From the sequence record MK234886: 64,000 nt of DNA; one strand, given 5' to 3'. Positions 30,177 through 36,251 of the stretch are shown in pieces. Position numbers and translations under genes: made by a program. This DNA comes from Escherichia phage AnYang. A model generated the notes under the pieces. It did no database searches and was not told where the DNA came from. It was given only the letters and a program-made list of their open reading frames with translations. Position 1 is the stretch's first letter. Each line of letters starts with the position of its first letter.

Positions 30177-30865
30177 TACCAGCCCTCCATAGGGAATTCC
30201 AGATAAACTTGAGCATTAACACGGATTTCATTAGTAATCTTTTTAACACGGTCGGTATTACGAGAGACACGACCAAACCAGCGCCACCCGTTACTTACTG
30301 CACGAGAACCTGTATGCCATGTCTGCCAATCAAACTGGAGCAACGTGCGGTCAGGAGCATCCCACTTGGTTAATTCATTGGACTCAATTTTTTCCAGAAC
30401 TTCTTTATGCCACTGGCGATAGATAAGTTCGCCTTCAGGAATCTGACTAAATTGTGCAGTTCCGGTTGCAAAATGGGTAGGACACACATCAGCGTTAACA
30501 AGACCAAGAATATGTTCAGAATGGTAACGAGGATTATCATAATCAGGTTGCCCTGCGGTAATAAAGTGTTGACCAACCGGAATATCCGGGCGTGGTACAT
30601 CATCATGGTGGAAGCCTGGAATTGCAGGGTACCAGCCGGGCATTAACATGTGTACACGGGAATCAAATACAATATCAGGCCCACATTGCCAATCTTCAGG
30701 CAGGTTTTCAATAAAGCTACGAGTAATAGGACCGCCGTGTTTATGAGCAAAATAAGCATCGCAATTAAAGAACATAGGCTCATTTTTAATCATATCATTA
30801 CTGATATCTTGAGCAAAATTACCTACTATAGAAGCTTTGGAATTAAAAGTTTTTGGACCATTCAT
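30176..30865 (-). CDS. hypothetical protein (His/Asp-rich, possible metal-dependent enzyme)
   Basis: 229 aa; GAGGAAA SD; FHHDDVP and HF motifs but no firm family assignment. Confidence 0.55.
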   Translation of the reverse strand: MNGPKTFNSKASIVGNFAQDISNDMIKNEPMFFNCDAYFAHKHGGPITRSFIENLPEDWQCGPDIVFDSRVHMLMPGWYPAIPGFHHDDVPRPDIPVGQHFITAGQPDYDNPRYHSEHILGLVNADVCPTHFATGTAQFSQIPEGELIYRQWHKEVLEKIESNELTKWDAPDRTLLQFDWQTWHTGSRAVSNGWRWFGRVSRNTDRVKKITNEIRVNAQVYLEFPMEGW

Positions 30866-30879
30866 AATATTTTCCTCAC

Positions 30880-31104
30880 TTACTTTTTGTTGAAAAAGTA
30901 CATTTTACCTTTAGGAGATAAAGATACACGAAGTGCGTTACCAATACCAACTGAACATTTAACCAGGTCAGCAGATTTCAATTCACCAAATGCTTGACGA
31001 AGGTCACCGTCACGAGTGTTAACCATCAGGCATTTAGCGCCAGCTGCACGAACTTCGTTTAACATGTTGATTGCTTGATTAGAAAGTTTCATTTTATTCT
31101 CCAT
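30880..31104 (-). CDS. hypothetical protein
   Basis: ORF-track TTG start lies upstream of the promoter; ATG at 31104 or 31092 chosen. Confidence 0.45.
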   Translation of the reverse strand: MENKMKLSNQAINMLNEVRAAGAKCLMVNTRDGDLRQAFGELKSADLVKCSVGIGNALRVSLSPKGKMYFFNKK

Positions 31105-31129
31105 TTCACTCTGTTGTTTTGATAGGTCT

Positions 31130-31159
31130 ATAGTATCACACCTATAGACCTTGTACACT
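31130..31159 (-). promoter_or_regulatory. T4-type early promoter with AGGTCTATAG/CTATAGACCT inverted repeat
   Basis: GTGTAC -35 variant, TACTAT -10; cassette nearly identical to those at 36608 and 40958. Confidence 0.45.
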
Positions 31160-31170
31160 GTTTTGTGCAA

Positions 31171-32130
31171 TTATTTTTCGAAAGGACGAATTAAATGATG
31201 GTTATCTTGGAAACGCTTGATGTAGTCGTTTTCACCTAAAGTCTTGTACATATTAACCACAGCTTGGTAGTTTTCCCAGGCGTACTCACGGAACCAACCT
31301 GAAGTGATTGAGGTGCACACTTTCTCAAGAGCCATATAGAAACTTAATGATGGTGAAATATTGAAGTCATTAGGAACCTGCGAACGTTCTAGCGCCAGGA
31401 CACAAGTTTCTTCATACACACCAGCCAATTTAATAGCTTCAGGCAAAGCCTCGAACTTCTCACGAGAGGTCATGACTTCAGAACCTTCCTTCATATAAAA
31501 GGTATATGCAGGGCGCCCTGCCAATGCCACGGCTTCATGGATAGAGTCATGGTCTAGCGTATAAATGGTGTCATTAAAGAACGATGATTTGTTTACATCC
31601 AATTTAGGATGAGAATAGCTCAACGTTTCTTTTTGGCGTTGCAGCATAATTTCCTGGAGTTCTTCATTCAGGGTGATACCTTTATTACGAAGGTATTTGA
31701 TGTGGGACATAGTTTTCAGGAAGAAAGGATTATTCTTCAGGAAACGATGAGAGGTTTTGATAGCCAGACAGATATCAGGCGTCGCCCAATAGAAGCCTGT
31801 CATACGGTCCTTTTTAATATGCTTTTTAGCATAATTCAGAAGGCGGTAGCTTGAGGTGTAGTCTTCATCTTGGAGCTCACCGGTGATTTCTCGTACGTTA
31901 GTCAGGGCACGGACGATATAAGCTTCGAAATAGGTTTCTTTACCATTATGCATACATTTGAAAGCCTGGACATCAGGGTTATCAACGTGTACATGGGCAC
32001 CGAACATCTGTGCTTTAAAATTATTCCATGAACCTTGGTCGGCAATGAAATCCCAATCAGAATTTTCGATATACTTACTTTCAATCAGACCAGCATGGTG
32101 CAGTGCACGAGAACCAATAACTAACATCAT
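31171..32130 (-). CDS. hypothetical protein with nucleotidyltransferase-like N-terminal motif
   Basis: 319 aa from MMLVIGSRAL...; GS...SDWDF resembles Pol-beta NTase signature; GAGGAAA SD. Confidence 0.55.
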   Translation of the reverse strand: MMLVIGSRALHHAGLIESKYIENSDWDFIADQGSWNNFKAQMFGAHVHVDNPDVQAFKCMHNGKETYFEAYIVRALTNVREITGELQDEDYTSSYRLLNYAKKHIKKDRMTGFYWATPDICLAIKTSHRFLKNNPFFLKTMSHIKYLRNKGITLNEELQEIMLQRQKETLSYSHPKLDVNKSSFFNDTIYTLDHDSIHEAVALAGRPAYTFYMKEGSEVMTSREKFEALPEAIKLAGVYEETCVLALERSQVPNDFNISPSLSFYMALEKVCTSITSGWFREYAWENYQAVVNMYKTLGENDYIKRFQDNHHLIRPFEK

Positions 32131-32149
32131 AATATTTTCCTCAGTAAAC

Positions 32150-32389
32150 TTAAATTTCGGCAACATAAGTATTATGCAATTCCCACATATCATCGGAATT
32201 ACTCTCAACGATAGGAATTATCTCATTAGAGATTTCTTCTGCATAAGGGTCATTGATACAATGGGCATCTTCAAAACGAACACCGTAATCAGACTTCTTA
32301 TAAGCAAAGCCATAAATCTTTTTAAACTTGGCACGAGTAATGCGTACCGGTTCATTAGACTTATCGGACATCGGAGCGTAATACCACAT
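32150..32389 (-). CDS. hypothetical protein
   Basis: 79 aa, GAGGAGAA SD. Confidence 0.5.
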   Translation of the reverse strand: MWYYAPMSDKSNEPVRITRAKFKKIYGFAYKKSDYGVRFEDAHCINDPYAEEISNEIIPIVESNSDDMWELHNTYVAEI

Positions 32390-32432
32390 ATGTTCTCCTC
32401 ATGTTTGTGTAGGGTAATAGTAACACGTATTT

Positions 32433-32762
32433 TTAGAGTTGTACATCACTTCTGCAATATTCTAAAAATAATTTATCGTTGTCTACCGTATCCCAACGAC
32501 GCCAAGATGGATTCCAGACCAGAGCGTTGTCACCACAATCATTGAGCTTAAAATGGTCGTAGTACATAGCTATACGTTTAGTCTCGTCGCCAGAGAACCC
32601 CAGTATAGGCTCACCGTGGGTATGATACATATGATGGTGCATTGAGAGGTCGCATTTGTAAAACATCTCACGTTTACCACGAACGAACAAGAAGGCTTGC
32701 CCATTCATATAGAATTCTTTATCTGTTTTCAAAAGATATTTGAATACTGAATCTTTATGCAT
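32433..32762 (-). CDS. hypothetical His/Cys-rich protein
   Basis: start at internal ATG with AGGAGGA SD; contains CDLSMHHHMYHTHGE. Confidence 0.5.
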   Translation of the reverse strand: MHKDSVFKYLLKTDKEFYMNGQAFLFVRGKREMFYKCDLSMHHHMYHTHGEPILGFSGDETKRIAMYYDHFKLNDCGDNALVWNPSWRRWDTVDNDKLFLEYCRSDVQL

Positions 32763-32792
32763 AAGTCCTCCTATCACATCCATGTGGTTAAA

Positions 32793-33020
32793 TTATTTTC
32801 CTAACGAAACACGAGTAGGTTTTTTACCAAAATAGTCCTCATAAGAACCATCTAAACGACCCGCTTTAGACCGACAATATGAATCGTACTTTTTGTAATA
32901 AGTCATCTCAGTATTATAACGTGGGTGTCTATCAGCCATAATAATACTTAGTGGCCAACCTTTGGCATAATCGCGAAGACCATTTATTTTACGAATGTAT
33001 CGTTTTTTCAATTTTAGCAT
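32793..33020 (-). CDS. hypothetical basic protein
   Basis: 75 aa, Lys/Arg/Tyr-rich. Confidence 0.45.
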   Translation of the reverse strand: MLKLKKRYIRKINGLRDYAKGWPLSIIMADRHPRYNTEMTYYKKYDSYCRSKAGRLDGSYEDYFGKKPTRVSLGK

Positions 33021-33238
33021 GAGCTTGGGTACCAGATTTTACCATCGGAACGAGCAACGAAGGTGCGACCAGCTTCTTCACCATAACAAGAGCTATTCAG
33101 CCAATCTTCGAGACGAACTTCACCGTCATAATCATCGAGCTCAACGCCAAAATCCTGAGCAGAAGCCATATCTTTTACTTTCTTATACAGTGCAGCCAGT
33201 TCAAGTGCAGCTTTTTCTAATTCATTAATATCAGTCAT
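33014..33238 (-). CDS. C-terminal W-x-S-S-Cys family protein (member 1)
   Basis: 74 aa from ATG with AAGGTGA SD; ends ...WYPSSC; also internal WLNSSC. Confidence 0.5.
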   Translation of the reverse strand: MTDINELEKAALELAALYKKVKDMASAQDFGVELDDYDGEVRLEDWLNSSCYGEEAGRTFVARSDGKIWYPSSC

Positions 33239-33248
33239 TTTTATCACC

Positions 33249-33458
33249 TTAGCAAGACATAGAGGAGCTAAACCAGAAACCTTCACCTTCTGGAATACCG
33301 TAATCATCACGGGCCCATTCGTAATCATCATATTCCGGACTAGAAGCTGGAATATATTCTTCGCCACCAGCGTGGAAGTGTTGACCTGTTTCGTCAGCCA
33401 CGGACTGGCCTTTACGTACTAATTCACGGATTTGTTTTTCAATTTCATCAATAGTCAT
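33249..33458 (-). CDS. C-terminal W-x-S-S-S-x-x-Cys family protein (member 2)
   Basis: 69 aa; ends ...GFWFSSSMSC; AAGGAAA SD overlapping upstream stop. Confidence 0.55.
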   Translation of the reverse strand: MTIDEIEKQIRELVRKGQSVADETGQHFHAGGEEYIPASSPEYDDYEWARDDYGIPEGEGFWFSSSMSC

Positions 33459-33467
33459 TTTATTTCC

Positions 33468-33665
33468 TTAGCATTCGTAAGAGGAGGACACCCAAGAGGT
33501 ACCACTAATAGTAATACAACCGTTATAAAGCGTGATATGTCGTTCTAGGTCACGAACACCATCGATATAGATATCAGCTTCTTCGCGTTCTTCTTTACAA
33601 ATCTGGATAACGTTTTCAATAGCTGCGGCTGCAGTACGGATTGCACAATCTAGTTCACGAGACAT
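33468..33665 (-). CDS. C-terminal W-V-S-S-S-x-x-Cys family protein (member 3)
   Basis: 65 aa; ends ...TSWVSSSYEC. Confidence 0.55.
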   Translation of the reverse strand: MSRELDCAIRTAAAAIENVIQICKEEREEADIYIDGVRDLERHITLYNGCITISGTSWVSSSYEC

Positions 33666-33674
33666 AATAATTCC

Positions 33675-33956
33675 TTAACATTCAGAAGAAGAGGACACCC
33701 ATCCACCATTTTCTAGGCTGGTGGTGTAATCATGTTGGTTTACAATAGCGTACTGAGCTTCACCGTATTCTTCCCAGTGGGCAAGGTCGGCTTTCAGGGC
33801 GCCAGGAGAATAATAGTCACCGCCCATACCGCGAGCAGGGTATATATTAAAATGAGTCTCATATTTGTTAGCAATTTCCTCAGCACGACGAATAGCTTTA
33901 TGAATATCATTTACTGCTTCAGCCAGCTCTTTATTTTTACGGTAATCATTCATCAT
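33675..33956 (-). CDS. C-terminal W-V-S-S-S-x-x-Cys family protein (member 4)
   Basis: 93 aa; ends ...GGWVSSSSEC. Confidence 0.55.
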   Translation of the reverse strand: MMNDYRKNKELAEAVNDIHKAIRRAEEIANKYETHFNIYPARGMGGDYYSPGALKADLAHWEEYGEAQYAIVNQHDYTTSLENGGWVSSSSEC

Positions 33957-33965
33957 AGCGTTTCC

Positions 33966-34256
33966 TTAGCACATTGCCGAAGAGGAGACCCAAGCACCGA
34001 CTGTAACGACACCGTTTTCAACTTCACCGCCATTGTTTTCAATTTCATCTTTAAACCACTGGGAGCATTCATAACCGACAGGATAATATGTACGGCCTGA
34101 ACCATAATCACCTGTACCGAATTGGATACCATACTTATCGGCAATAGCTTCACATTCATGTTCGATGGTATTCACTTTATTCAGAAGAGCATAGATAGCC
34201 TTTTCTGCAGATTTCTCATCATTGTGTTCTGGGATTTCAATTTCAATTTTATTCAT
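33966..34256 (-). CDS. C-terminal W-V-S-S-S-x-x-Cys family protein (member 5)
   Basis: 96 aa; ends ...GAWVSSSAMC. Confidence 0.55.
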   Translation of the reverse strand: MNKIEIEIPEHNDEKSAEKAIYALLNKVNTIEHECEAIADKYGIQFGTGDYGSGRTYYPVGYECSQWFKDEIENNGGEVENGVVTVGAWVSSSAMC

Positions 34257-34606
34257 GATTTACATTCCTTAATAAAGGTTTCAAGGTCATTACGATTGGT
34301 TTGTTTTACATACTCATTATAATTAGCCATCGATACAGCATATCTCTTACGGATGGGAGCATTCAAAGCATTTGTATGGCAAATATCATACACTACAGGG
34401 ATAAAATAAGCCACGACAGCCGGAGCGATTATCATATAGAAACCCATCTCAATAGGTGTGACTCCTTCGATTACAGCCATAACCACGGTCATTACCAGGC
34501 CAATTAGGCCGCCAAGCATGGCTGTAACAATCCCTAATAATAAATTGGCACCAATATCATATTCAGCCAATTGATAAACATGTGATGAAAGACTAGGCCG
34601 CTCCAT
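34253..34606 (-). CDS. membrane protein
   Basis: 117 aa from MERPSL... with AAAGAGG SD; TM helices; C-terminal ...ETFIKECKS. Confidence 0.45.
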   Translation of the reverse strand: MERPSLSSHVYQLAEYDIGANLLLGIVTAMLGGLIGLVMTVVMAVIEGVTPIEMGFYMIIAPAVVAYFIPVVYDICHTNALNAPIRKRYAVSMANYNEYVKQTNRNDLETFIKECKS

Positions 34607-35135
34607 TTTGAACCTCTTTAGCGTATTCGCGACATTCAGCAATAAAACGATTAAGCTTCCGTTGTTGTTTTCGAATCTCTGATGTATACTCATTAGCCAA
34701 AATAATAAGCTCATCTTTATCGTAATTTTTAATATCCGAATAACTCGGGCGGCGGTCGACCATACCAAAGTGGTCACCATTTTCTAACATCAAATAGCAT
34801 ACTAAATGGTAATCATCGTCAGCATCAACAAGCTGTTTACAATCACTTGGTTCATTTAAAGCGTATACTGAATAGCATAATCCAGCGAATTCCACTCGTT
34901 GAATACCTAGATTTAAGTCAATAATTTCTAAAGCTTCTGCAAAAGAAAGGTCCTCAGCTAAAGCAAAGATAAAAGGTAATTTGCTAGTGTATCCACGGCT
35001 ATTTGTTCGACTTAAGAAATCATTGGAATAACCTAAGTCTTGGCGAATTCTATAAAGAACTGAATTAGTTTCATGGGAAAGACCACTATGCTTAAACCAG
35101 TCAATATTTGATATCAGGTCGTCATATAAACTCAT
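34593..35135 (-). CDS. hypothetical protein (180 aa)
   Basis: strong GGAGGAGAGGAG SD; C-terminal ...NRFIAECRE. Confidence 0.55.
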   Translation of the reverse strand: MSLYDDLISNIDWFKHSGLSHETNSVLYRIRQDLGYSNDFLSRTNSRGYTSKLPFIFALAEDLSFAEALEIIDLNLGIQRVEFAGLCYSVYALNEPSDCKQLVDADDDYHLVCYLMLENGDHFGMVDRRPSYSDIKNYDKDELIILANEYTSEIRKQQRKLNRFIAECREYAKEVQNGAA

Positions 35136-35158
35136 AATATTCTCCTCTCCTCCAAATA

Positions 35159-35176
35159 GGGAGACCGAAGTCTCCC
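35159..35176 (-). terminator. hairpin GGGAGAC-CGAA-GTCTCCC (minus strand)
   Basis: perfect 7 bp stem downstream of 35184-35777; same core as the terminator at 36664-36690. Confidence 0.4.
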
Positions 35177-35183
35177 AGTAACA

Positions 35184-35777
35184 TTACTTAAGTGAATTAA
35201 TGTAGTCGTCGATATCGGCAGAAGTCGTATCCATTCCAACTTGTGGGCCTTTAAACGTTTCTACACGCAGCAGGGTATCTTCAATATCAATCTTAGTCAG
35301 TGCAGCGATTTCAACAACATCATCGGCAGTAGCAATACCAAGGGCAGCCATATTGCGAGTTTCACGGATGTACTCGAGCTTAACGGCCAGTTCCTGACGA
35401 GAGTCATCAAGTTCCTTGACCTTCAGTTTAATTTCATTACGCATTTCGATATAATCATCGGCCTTCTTACGAAGCTGAGTAGCTGTACGACGATAAAGGA
35501 GGCCAAGTTTAGCATGTACCTGGACATCAGCACCTTCGGCAATCAGTTTACGAATTTCACGTTCTTTAGAAGCGGCAAGCTGGTCTTTTTCATTAGCCAA
35601 CGCACGAATACGTTTTTCTTCATTCACAGACTTAACATGAGCGGTCTGGAGTTCAGTAATTTTATCAATCAGGGTAGAAGCAGCTTTGGTGTATTGGTCT
35701 TCGATTGACAGGTTCTGAGCCATTGCAGTACCCAGTTTAGAACGGATGAATTCAACGATTTTCTTTAAAGTGTTCAT
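35184..35777 (-). CDS. coiled-coil protein
   Basis: 197 aa, heptad-rich helical sequence, AAGGAAA SD. Confidence 0.55.
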
Positions 35778-35852
35778 AGTATTTCCTTCAGTTGATTAAG
35801 ATTTATAATCCATGAGGACATTATACCCTGTCCTCTGAGGTTTGTAAATATT

Positions 35853-36251
35853 TTATTTCATTTTTGCGAGGCAAATTTCATTGGCTTCCCATTGAGCTTG
35901 CTTAATAATAGCTTTGGATACAGGAACCCTTTGGCCATAAGTTTTTGACGTTGAGAGAACAATATGTTTGTTTGCTTCATTATGCCAGCCCCATGATTTT
36001 TCGCCATGAGTACCTTTAACTACAGCTGACACCTCAACAGAGCAACCACCATCAGAAATCTTGGTTTCGACAATCCATTCATTTCTTTCGACGGCTTCAA
36101 GTTCTAATCTAGTTTTTTCTTCATACATAGCGGCCCAATCAGTTTTTGCCAAGTTGAAAGTAAGAGCTTTCTCCAATTCTTTGGCAGCTTTTTGTTGTTC
36201 AGGCGTTAATGAATTATACAACTCTTGCATTTCTTTATCTTCGATATTCAT
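35853..36251 (-). CDS. hypothetical protein (132 aa)
   Basis: GAGGAGAA SD. Confidence 0.55.
   Translation of the reverse strand: MNIEDKEMQELYNSLTPEQQKAAKELEKALTFNLAKTDWAAMYEEKTRLELEAVERNEWIVETKISDGGCSVEVSAVVKGTHGEKSWGWHNEANKHIVLSTSKTYGQRVPVSKAIIKQAQWEANEICLAKMK

Follow-up and report, generated by a model that had tools for sequence, protein, structure and literature searches.

An array of small phage proteins sharing a W-x-x-S-S-x-x-Cys end is linked to a predicted MenT-like nucleotidyltransferase in Escherichia phage AnYang and many other phages

The window analyzed here is a 64,000-nucleotide (nt) stretch of DNA from Escherichia phage AnYang (sequence record MK234886). Its minus strand carries, at positions 33014–34256, an array of five consecutive small genes, named A to E here (Table 1), followed downstream by a gene for a predicted enzyme. 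All five proteins are acidic (isoelectric point, pI, 4.2–5.1) and all end in W-x-x-S-S, up to two further residues and a Cys placed directly before the stop codon. A preliminary description, made from the sequence alone, had presented them as five paralogous minus-strand genes with a common C-terminus, and this was confirmed. Among the 1253 stop-to-stop open reading frames (ORFs) of at least 25 amino acids (aa) in the window, 33 end in Cys and exactly five, these adjacent genes, match the pattern W-x(1,2)-S-S-x(0,2)-C-stop. The other array members share 24–32% of their residues with protein A.

It had also been claimed that the Ser codons of the motif differ between copies and that the conservation therefore lies at the protein level and is not a nucleotide repeat. 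The codons do differ (TCC TCT TCG, TCC TCT TCT, TCC TCC TCT, AGC TCC TCT and AGC TCA), and the sole DNA repeat is a 47-nt element at three of the gene junctions, no longer repeat being found in the array. The element follows the consensus TGY-TAA-GGA-(5–8 nt)-ATG, in which the Shine-Dalgarno sequence of each downstream gene overlaps the stop codon of the gene before it. This arrangement suggests that successive genes are translationally coupled and are expressed at similar levels throughout the array. We considered whether the shared end could be a by-product of this overlap between stop codon and Shine-Dalgarno sequence and rejected the idea, as gene E keeps the motif with no Shine-Dalgarno sequence downstream and the motif is retained in phages with different junction sequences. 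A recent DNA duplication, which the preliminary description had named as a point that would count against it, was rejected as well: the paralogues are only 24–32% identical at the protein level, and each has its own orthologues in distant phages, so that they form separate orthologous lines.

Profile searches placed proteins A, B, D and E in PHROG 899 and protein C in PHROG 4882, with significant matches over the protein length; both families are catalogued without a function. Scans of the five proteins against Pfam, NCBIfam and PADLOC gave no significant match. With protein A as the query, tblastn detected 367 phage records, with Escherichia, Aeromonas, Enterobacter, Klebsiella, Serratia and others as hosts. 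An exhaustive profile search of 1.84 billion cluster representatives returned 219 at E ≤ 1e-3, nearly all of 70–130 aa, and in nearly all of them the match extends to the last residue. Whether homologues lack the C-terminal motif, another point raised at the outset, was checked in the best 146 (the most distant) of these representatives: in 133 the Cys is the very last residue, and in about 10 others it is followed by one or two residues. When 46 diverse members were aligned, only the W, one S and the C were invariant, the second S being conserved in more than 90%, which bears out the earlier proposal that the C-terminal motif defines the family.

The 217 unique members collected from phage loci fall into several subtypes built on one common plan. 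An N-terminal amphipathic helix ending in A-D-E-h-G-h-x-F is followed by a (P)AYG(M/S)GG-x-YY-P loop, an acidic aromatic linker and the G-x-W-x-x-S-S-x-x-C end, in which zero to three residues separate the S-S pair from the Cys. The “YGMGG” subtype, to which protein B belongs, is spread most widely over phage groups. In the E subtype the motif occurs twice, internally as W-x-x-S-S-C-Y-G-E and at the terminus as W-x-x-S-S-C, and T4-like, Aeromonas and Phapecoctavirus phages retain both copies. Judging from the internal copy, the element can apparently work, or at least persist, away from the C-terminus. One 155-aa member (P0309) is a tandem fusion of two whole small-family domains. One deposited annotation within the family looks spurious, the protein B orthologue of phage C6 being named “tail completion protein”.

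An AlphaFold2 model of protein A, based on a 41-sequence alignment, reached a predicted local distance difference test (pLDDT) value of 91.8 and shows a long helix (residues 14–42) on a small sheet. W89 lies in the last strand and residues 92–95 form a short turn; the last ten residues have a mean pLDDT of 78. None of the solved structures compared with this model has a similar helix-plus-sheet fold. The model thus places the Trp-x-x-Ser-Ser-x-x-Cys end within a folded domain, and not on a free peptide core.

The preliminary description had seen no obvious modification enzyme adjacent to the array. We found that a predicted nucleotidyltransferase is encoded 0.9 kb downstream, in the same direction, and that it is linked to the family in nearly all enzyme lineages, as detailed below. 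The protein combines an N-terminal Pol-beta-type nucleotidyltransferase core (DUF7277) with a helical, strongly conserved domain at the C-terminus (DUF7275). Homologues number 2032, and in 49 diverse sequences G6 and S7, D25-x-D27 and E69, which constitute the Pol-beta nucleotidyltransferase signature, are invariant. The features of the Pol-beta superfamily, namely hG[GS], [DE]h[DE]h, a third carboxylate and an alpha-beta-alpha-beta-alpha-beta core, are all present. Conserved positions of the C-terminal part include H128, H174, D193-H194-D195, H198, E240-E241, C243, E248-R249 and C272. Among the structural matches of the enzyme model, the MenT1 toxin came first (10.1), followed by ANT(2″) (8.8), TglT/MenT3 (8.6), MenT4 (7.8), JHP933 (7.7) and LnuA (7.3). 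Foldseek ranked MenT1 first too, with an alignment across all of MenT1. The last ~130 residues had no clear structural match, a sequence search of the PDB with the enzyme gave chance matches only, and a Pfam scan of the enzyme gave no sequence match to DUF1814, the MenT/AbiEii family, which is marked by a family-specific C-terminal motif IV. As the catalytic residues are invariant in the 49 sequences and the predicted fold matches nucleotidyltransferases, the enzyme appears capable of catalysis. A few Acinetobacter phage records already name it “putative nucleotidyltransferase”; other deposited names appear spurious, such as “prohead assembly scaffold protein” in Klebsiella phage VAC36 and “major capsid protein” in phage JQD51.

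The link between the two components is seen from both sides. In every related phage that was opened, an enzyme gene of ~300–320 codons lies one to four genes downstream of the array, and in Aeromonas phage 25 it still does so though the surrounding genes differ (nrdD, nrdH). Of 80 IMG/VR loci retrieved through the enzyme, 78 have one or more ORFs ending in W-x-x-S-S-x(0–3)-C; the same-strand region up to 3 kb upstream of the enzyme contains 194 of these ORFs vs. 6 in all other places, which corresponds to 0.81 vs. 0.003 per kb. With enzymes grouped into lineages at 60% identity, 22 of 24 lineages carry small genes within 3.5 kb, and between one and six such genes stand beside the enzyme. These linked lineages include T4-like and Aeromonas phages, Otagovirus, Phapecoctavirus, Menderavirus, Acinetobacter phages and jumbo-phage contigs of 355–371 kb (examples in Table 1). 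Starting from the small proteins of the YGMGG subtype, the enzyme was found 0.2–1.6 kb downstream in 18 of 19 loci, while the nineteenth, on a contig of 3.6 kb, breaks off at the array. Across lineages, no further gene family travels with the enzyme, the runner-up doing so in 4; the unit therefore consists of one to six small proteins and one enzyme. Four metagenomic contigs (L070, L071, L077 and L085) are arranged differently, in that the gene for their sole motif protein, of 139 aa and ending in YAWCSSSMEC, lies on the opposite strand, ~6 kb downstream of the enzyme gene (e.g., L070 13546–13989, minus strand).

These observations also bear on a reading in which there is no direct coupling, the motif binding a host factor or acting as a degradation or localization signal and the enzyme being merely a syntenic neighbor in an early block. 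It would be in line with neither partner having an assigned function and with both lying in variable early regions rich in nucleotide and nicotinamide adenine dinucleotide (NAD) metabolism genes (NudE, MazG, NAMPT, Sir2). However, the linkage outlasts complete turnover of the surrounding genes in 22 or more enzyme lineages, whose phages range in size from 93 kb to 370 kb (jumbo phages), the pair has no other co-travelling family, and the small proteins were not seen without the enzyme. We thus regard uncoupled neighbors as quite improbable, and conclude that the small proteins and the enzyme very probably form one functional unit.

The dependence between the two is one-way: the enzyme can occur alone, and the small proteins were only ever seen together with it. 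In all 18 testable loci (18/18) the small proteins are accompanied by the enzyme. The complete genome of CC31, in turn, encodes an intact enzyme (CC31p140, E 6e-147), and the whole genome contains no motif ORF and no hidden Markov model match to the small family. There, the slot upstream of the enzyme that holds the array in relatives is filled by seven to eight transfer RNA (tRNA) genes. The PG7 group, close relatives of CC31, kept one or two small genes. The family is also missing beside the remote enzyme homologues (25–30% identity) of Vibrio phage nt-1 and Gordonia phage Cucurbita, which have a different small neighbor. Members of this neighbor family begin with (R/K)Y-x-x-x-E-I-x-G-E, have a high content of Tyr, Gly and Asp and do not end in Cys. 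A 139-aa “WCSSSM-x-C” subtype of the small family (e.g., L054 5192–5611) has an N-terminus resembling that of the nt-1/Cucurbita neighbors.

The one-way pattern weighs on a toxin-antitoxin-like explanation, by which the enzyme would be a MenT/AbiEii-type toxin and the small proteins inhibitors whose C-terminal end plugs the active site of the enzyme. The best structural match of the enzyme, MenT1, is blocked by MenA1, an antitoxin of 68 aa (PMC10435456); small acidic helical proteins encoded just upstream of the enzyme in the same direction would fit such a scheme. Yet CC31 holds an intact enzyme in a genome free of family members, the remote enzyme homologues lack the family as well, and DUF1814 was unmatched in the Pfam scan of the enzyme. 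Moreover, up to five or six divergent paralogues per genome, in separate orthologous lines, are unexpected for redundant inhibitors. An inhibitor role is in our view very unlikely.

The window belongs to a Dhakavirus (JS98-like, T4-type), with vB_EcoM_IME281 as the best match (97.5% identity). The array is flanked by e.2-like and e.4/e.6-like genes within the lysozyme-to-tRNA interval. As a strong sigma-70-like promoter lies upstream and no minus-strand terminator-like site was found between it and position 30500, the array is probably part of an early operon in which this promoter would drive both array and enzyme. The three small genes standing between array and enzyme are outside the conserved core: the array directly abuts the enzyme in other phage groups, and none of the three belongs to the families found to accompany the enzyme from one lineage to another. 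Neither the small family nor the enzyme was found at T4 positions 50–100 kb (nrdC to gene 18, including the syntenic nrdC-e-tRNA interval), so that the remark that the family is not recognized from T4 holds for this region. T4 nrdC.11, annotated as a nucleotidyltransferase (L094 5435–6445), was considered as the T4 counterpart of the enzyme and rejected, as the two share no sequence similarity; CC31 has both. Genes for NudE/Nudix, MazG pyrophosphatase, NAMPT/nicotinamide mononucleotide adenylyltransferase, Sir2 and ribonucleotide reductase recur near the module in unrelated phages and in window positions 30500–36000. They may reflect a shared early-gene region only, or may hint at a nucleotide substrate.

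Table 1. Coordinates and properties of the array, the enzyme and related features. Positions refer to the window unless a sequence accession or a locus number (L) is given.
Feature	Position	Strand	Description
Small protein A	33966–34256	minus	96 aa, pI 4.4; “GDYGSGRTYYP” subtype; C-terminus GAWVSSSAMC; PHROG 899, E 1.4e-23
Small protein B	33675–33956	minus	93 aa, pI 5.1; “YGMGG” subtype (ARGMGGDYY here); C-terminus GGWVSSSSEC; PHROG 899, E 2.6e-20
Small protein C	33468–33665	minus	65 aa, pI 4.5; C-terminus TSWVSSSYEC; PHROG 4882, E 2.4e-36; forms its own cluster (cluster 2)
Small protein D	33249–33458	minus	69 aa, pI 4.2; C-terminus GFWFSSSMSC; PHROG 899, E 2.2e-13
Small protein E	33014–33238	minus	74 aa, pI 4.3; C-terminus KIWYPSSC (terminal IWYPSSC); internal DWLNSSC-YGEE; PHROG 899, E 4.9e-10
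Junction repeat, three copies	33448–33494, 33655–33701, 33946–33992	minus	47 nt, 66–79% identical; tail codons, TAA, GGA Shine-Dalgarno sequence and next ATG
Partner enzyme	31171–32130	minus	319 aa; DUF7277 (E 2.9e-27) and DUF7275 (E 1.7e-77); PHROG 2141; 0.9 kb downstream of the array, same direction
Three intervening small genes	32150–33020	minus	79, 116 and 75 aa; PHROG 3723, 9796 and 7065
Sigma-70-like promoter	35820–35848	minus	TTTACA-17-TATAAT, 11/12 matches; upstream of the array
CC31 tRNA-for-array site	NC_014662 69066–70111 (L115 19066–20111); L036 5615–6567		tRNA genes in place of the array
Different small neighbor, nt-1 ORF300	L012 4705–5001
Different small neighbor, Cucurbita gp16	L013 4630–4920
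Otagovirus phiPsa374			4 small-gene copies near the enzyme
Phapecoctavirus ukendt			3 small-gene copies near the enzyme
Stenotrophomonas phage Moby			Small-gene copies downstream of the enzyme
Acinetobacter phage KARL-1			2 small-gene copies near the enzyme

Divergent bodies with one nucleophile-rich invariant end, an intact nucleotidyltransferase and the one-way dependence are together best read as indicating that the small proteins are clients of the enzyme, to which the Ser/Cys end would offer a docking or acceptor site. The two partners are accordingly predicted to be in physical contact, each small protein presenting its C-terminal turn to the active site. With a nucleoside triphosphate as donor, the enzyme would then attach a nucleoside monophosphate (NMP) to the hydroxyl of one Ser in the S-S pair; the thiol of the Cys would be a less likely acceptor. 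The Trp would anchor the last strand, and the terminal Cys could serve as a docking aid, in metal binding, or in follow-up chemistry in the His/Asp/Cys-rich C-terminal domain of the enzyme. Paralogues with different bodies would represent different clients or effectors, all reliant on one enzyme. In support of an acceptor role, the small family has, apart from the W, only nucleophiles (S, S, C) as invariant residues. Pol-beta-fold enzymes are also known to accept protein hydroxyls, as in the case of GlnD/GlnE (Tyr), MntA acting on HepT (Tyr) and CitX/MdcG (Ser of small acidic carriers). By analogy with these systems, we tentatively propose that the tail Ser may be nucleotidylylated, which we see as a possible outcome and would not yet call the expected one.

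The preliminary description had likened the shared end to either a lanthionine-like core or a C-terminal recognition tag. A ring-forming variant of the chemistry can be drawn up, in which the nucleotidylylated Ser is eliminated to dehydroalanine by the C-terminal domain and the Cys adds to give a thioether ring that locks the turn. Known lanthipeptide synthetases likewise convert Ser/Thr to an activated ester, either phosphate or glutamate, ahead of the elimination step. The two Ser residues and the Cys are invariant and lie close by, the modelled helical turn would place residues i and i+3/i+4 in proximity, a single enzyme would be shared by many substrate genes, as in multi-precursor clusters of ribosomally synthesized and post-translationally modified peptides (RiPPs), and the C-terminal invariants H128, H174, D193-H194-D195, H198, C243 and C272 are left without an assigned role. 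However, no dehydratase or cyclase family was matched in the enzyme and six neighboring genes (32150–35777) with Pfam, NCBIfam or PHROG, and no protease or export gene is conserved alongside. The spacing between Ser and Cys is variable, and in the W-x-x-S-S-C form of the E subtype, where Cys comes right after S-S, the ring would be implausibly small. Furthermore, the substrates are modelled as folded proteins of 60–100 aa, and not as leader-plus-core peptides. We consider such ring formation highly improbable. A classical lanthipeptide is thus unsupported, given the lack of a LanB/LanC/LanM match in these genes, the modelled folded domain and the Ser-to-Cys spacing that varies from 0 to 3, and the recognition tag fits better.

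Several points weigh against nucleotidylylation of the tail. MenT1/3/4, to which the enzyme is structurally closest, have tRNA 3′ ends and not proteins as their substrates (PMC10435456). In the model the motif is part of the fold and not a free tail, although confidence is lower over the last ten residues of the protein. The variable distance between S-S and Cys counts here too, and about 7% of the distant members have one or two residues past the Cys, so that a terminal carboxylate is not strictly required. Since nt-1, Cucurbita and CC31 lack the small family, the enzyme must also have some activity that is independent of it.

The main rival is a role of the small proteins as adaptors or regulators, given that the nearest structural relatives of the enzyme are nucleotidyltransferases that modify tRNA 3′ ends (PMC10435456). 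Unmodified small proteins would dock via the shared end, and their bodies would steer or tune the enzyme to its targets, such as particular tRNAs or host proteins. Linkage and one-way dependence fit this model equally. In CC31 the enzyme without small proteins stands next to the cluster of tRNA genes, and the subtypes A, B/YGMGG, C, D and E have each been kept over long evolutionary distance, as expected of specificity subunits. On the other hand, it is not obvious why an invariant S-S and Cys would be required if the motif served docking alone, the subtypes are all built on a single small fold and vary mainly in short acidic loops, and the strong acidity (pI 4.2–5.1) disfavors RNA binding. 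Taken together, we judge the adaptor model unlikely, though less so than the other alternatives considered here.

Returning to the enzyme-client reading, the biological role would probably be early host takeover or counter-defense. In its fullest form it describes an unrecognized phage modification system, in which a MenT-like enzyme uses the W-x-x-S-S-x-x-Cys of folded small proteins as an acceptor and arms one to six early effectors per phage against host functions or defenses; this complete picture is somewhat doubtful and is put forward with due reserve. Its possible products would be Ser-O-NMP, protein-primed oligonucleotide tails or an NMP-activated Ser-to-Cys cross-link.

Both partners are catalogued as families without a function (PHROG 899, 4882 and 2141; Pfam DUF7275 and DUF7277). 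In the searchable literature, queried with DUF and PHROG identifiers, locus tags, phage MenT, C-terminal cysteine and AMPylation, we found no description of the motif, the family or the linkage. The enzyme is present in 733 of 50,697 phage records and one small-protein subtype in 367. The module is thus carried by hundreds of sequenced phages, including the long-studied RB69/Mosigvirus, JS98/Dhakavirus and Aeromonas 25 groups, therapeutic-candidate Klebsiella and Acinetobacter phages, and jumbo phages. Once the small proteins and the enzyme are treated as a single unit, a specific biochemical hypothesis can be framed for five “hypothetical proteins”. Should the enzyme modify the tails, this would be a new protein modification and a new use for the MenT/AbiEii fold; if it acts on tRNA with the small proteins as adaptors, the module would be a phage-side counterpart to a bacterial toxin family.

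In outline, the module resembles MenAT and HEPN-MNT modules; new here are the partner family, its fold, its motif and the layout of one enzyme to many partners. Tandem small genes with a conserved Ser/Cys segment and one nearby enzyme gene also recall lanthipeptide and other RiPP arrays. In contrast to these, the phage locus has no match to LanB/C/M/KC/L in the enzyme and the six neighboring genes at 32150–35777, and the phage proteins are predicted to be folded, are related in their bodies too, and have a short terminal conserved part with inconsistent Ser-Cys spacing. With MenT/AbiEii and its MenA partner (MenAT1: PDB 8an4, 8an5), the module shares hG[GS], DxD and the third carboxylate, as well as a small gene linked to a nucleotidyltransferase gene. 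Unlike MenT/AbiEii, the phage enzyme has no DUF1814 sequence match and carries an extra, highly conserved domain of ~130 aa. The phage module is found in lytic phages with one to six partner genes vs. one, and its enzyme is partnerless in CC31, which a toxin should not tolerate. To our knowledge, the invariant W-x-x-S-S-x-x-C end is present in no MenA antitoxin. CitX and MdcG attach a nucleotide-derived group to a Ser hydroxyl of the ~100-aa acidic carriers CitD and MdcC; however, no sequence or fold similarity to the phage pair was detected, and these proteins belong to metabolic lyase/decarboxylase operons and not to phages, with a single carrier that has no terminal Cys motif. The closest precedent for the proposed mechanism is HEPN-MNT, in which MntA, a minimal Pol-beta nucleotidyltransferase, poly-AMPylates the adjacently encoded HepT on Tyr. 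The phage proteins differ in having no HEPN match in a profile scan of the five, in offering a candidate acceptor at a C-terminal Ser/Cys vs. an internal Tyr, and in the many partners that accompany each enzyme.

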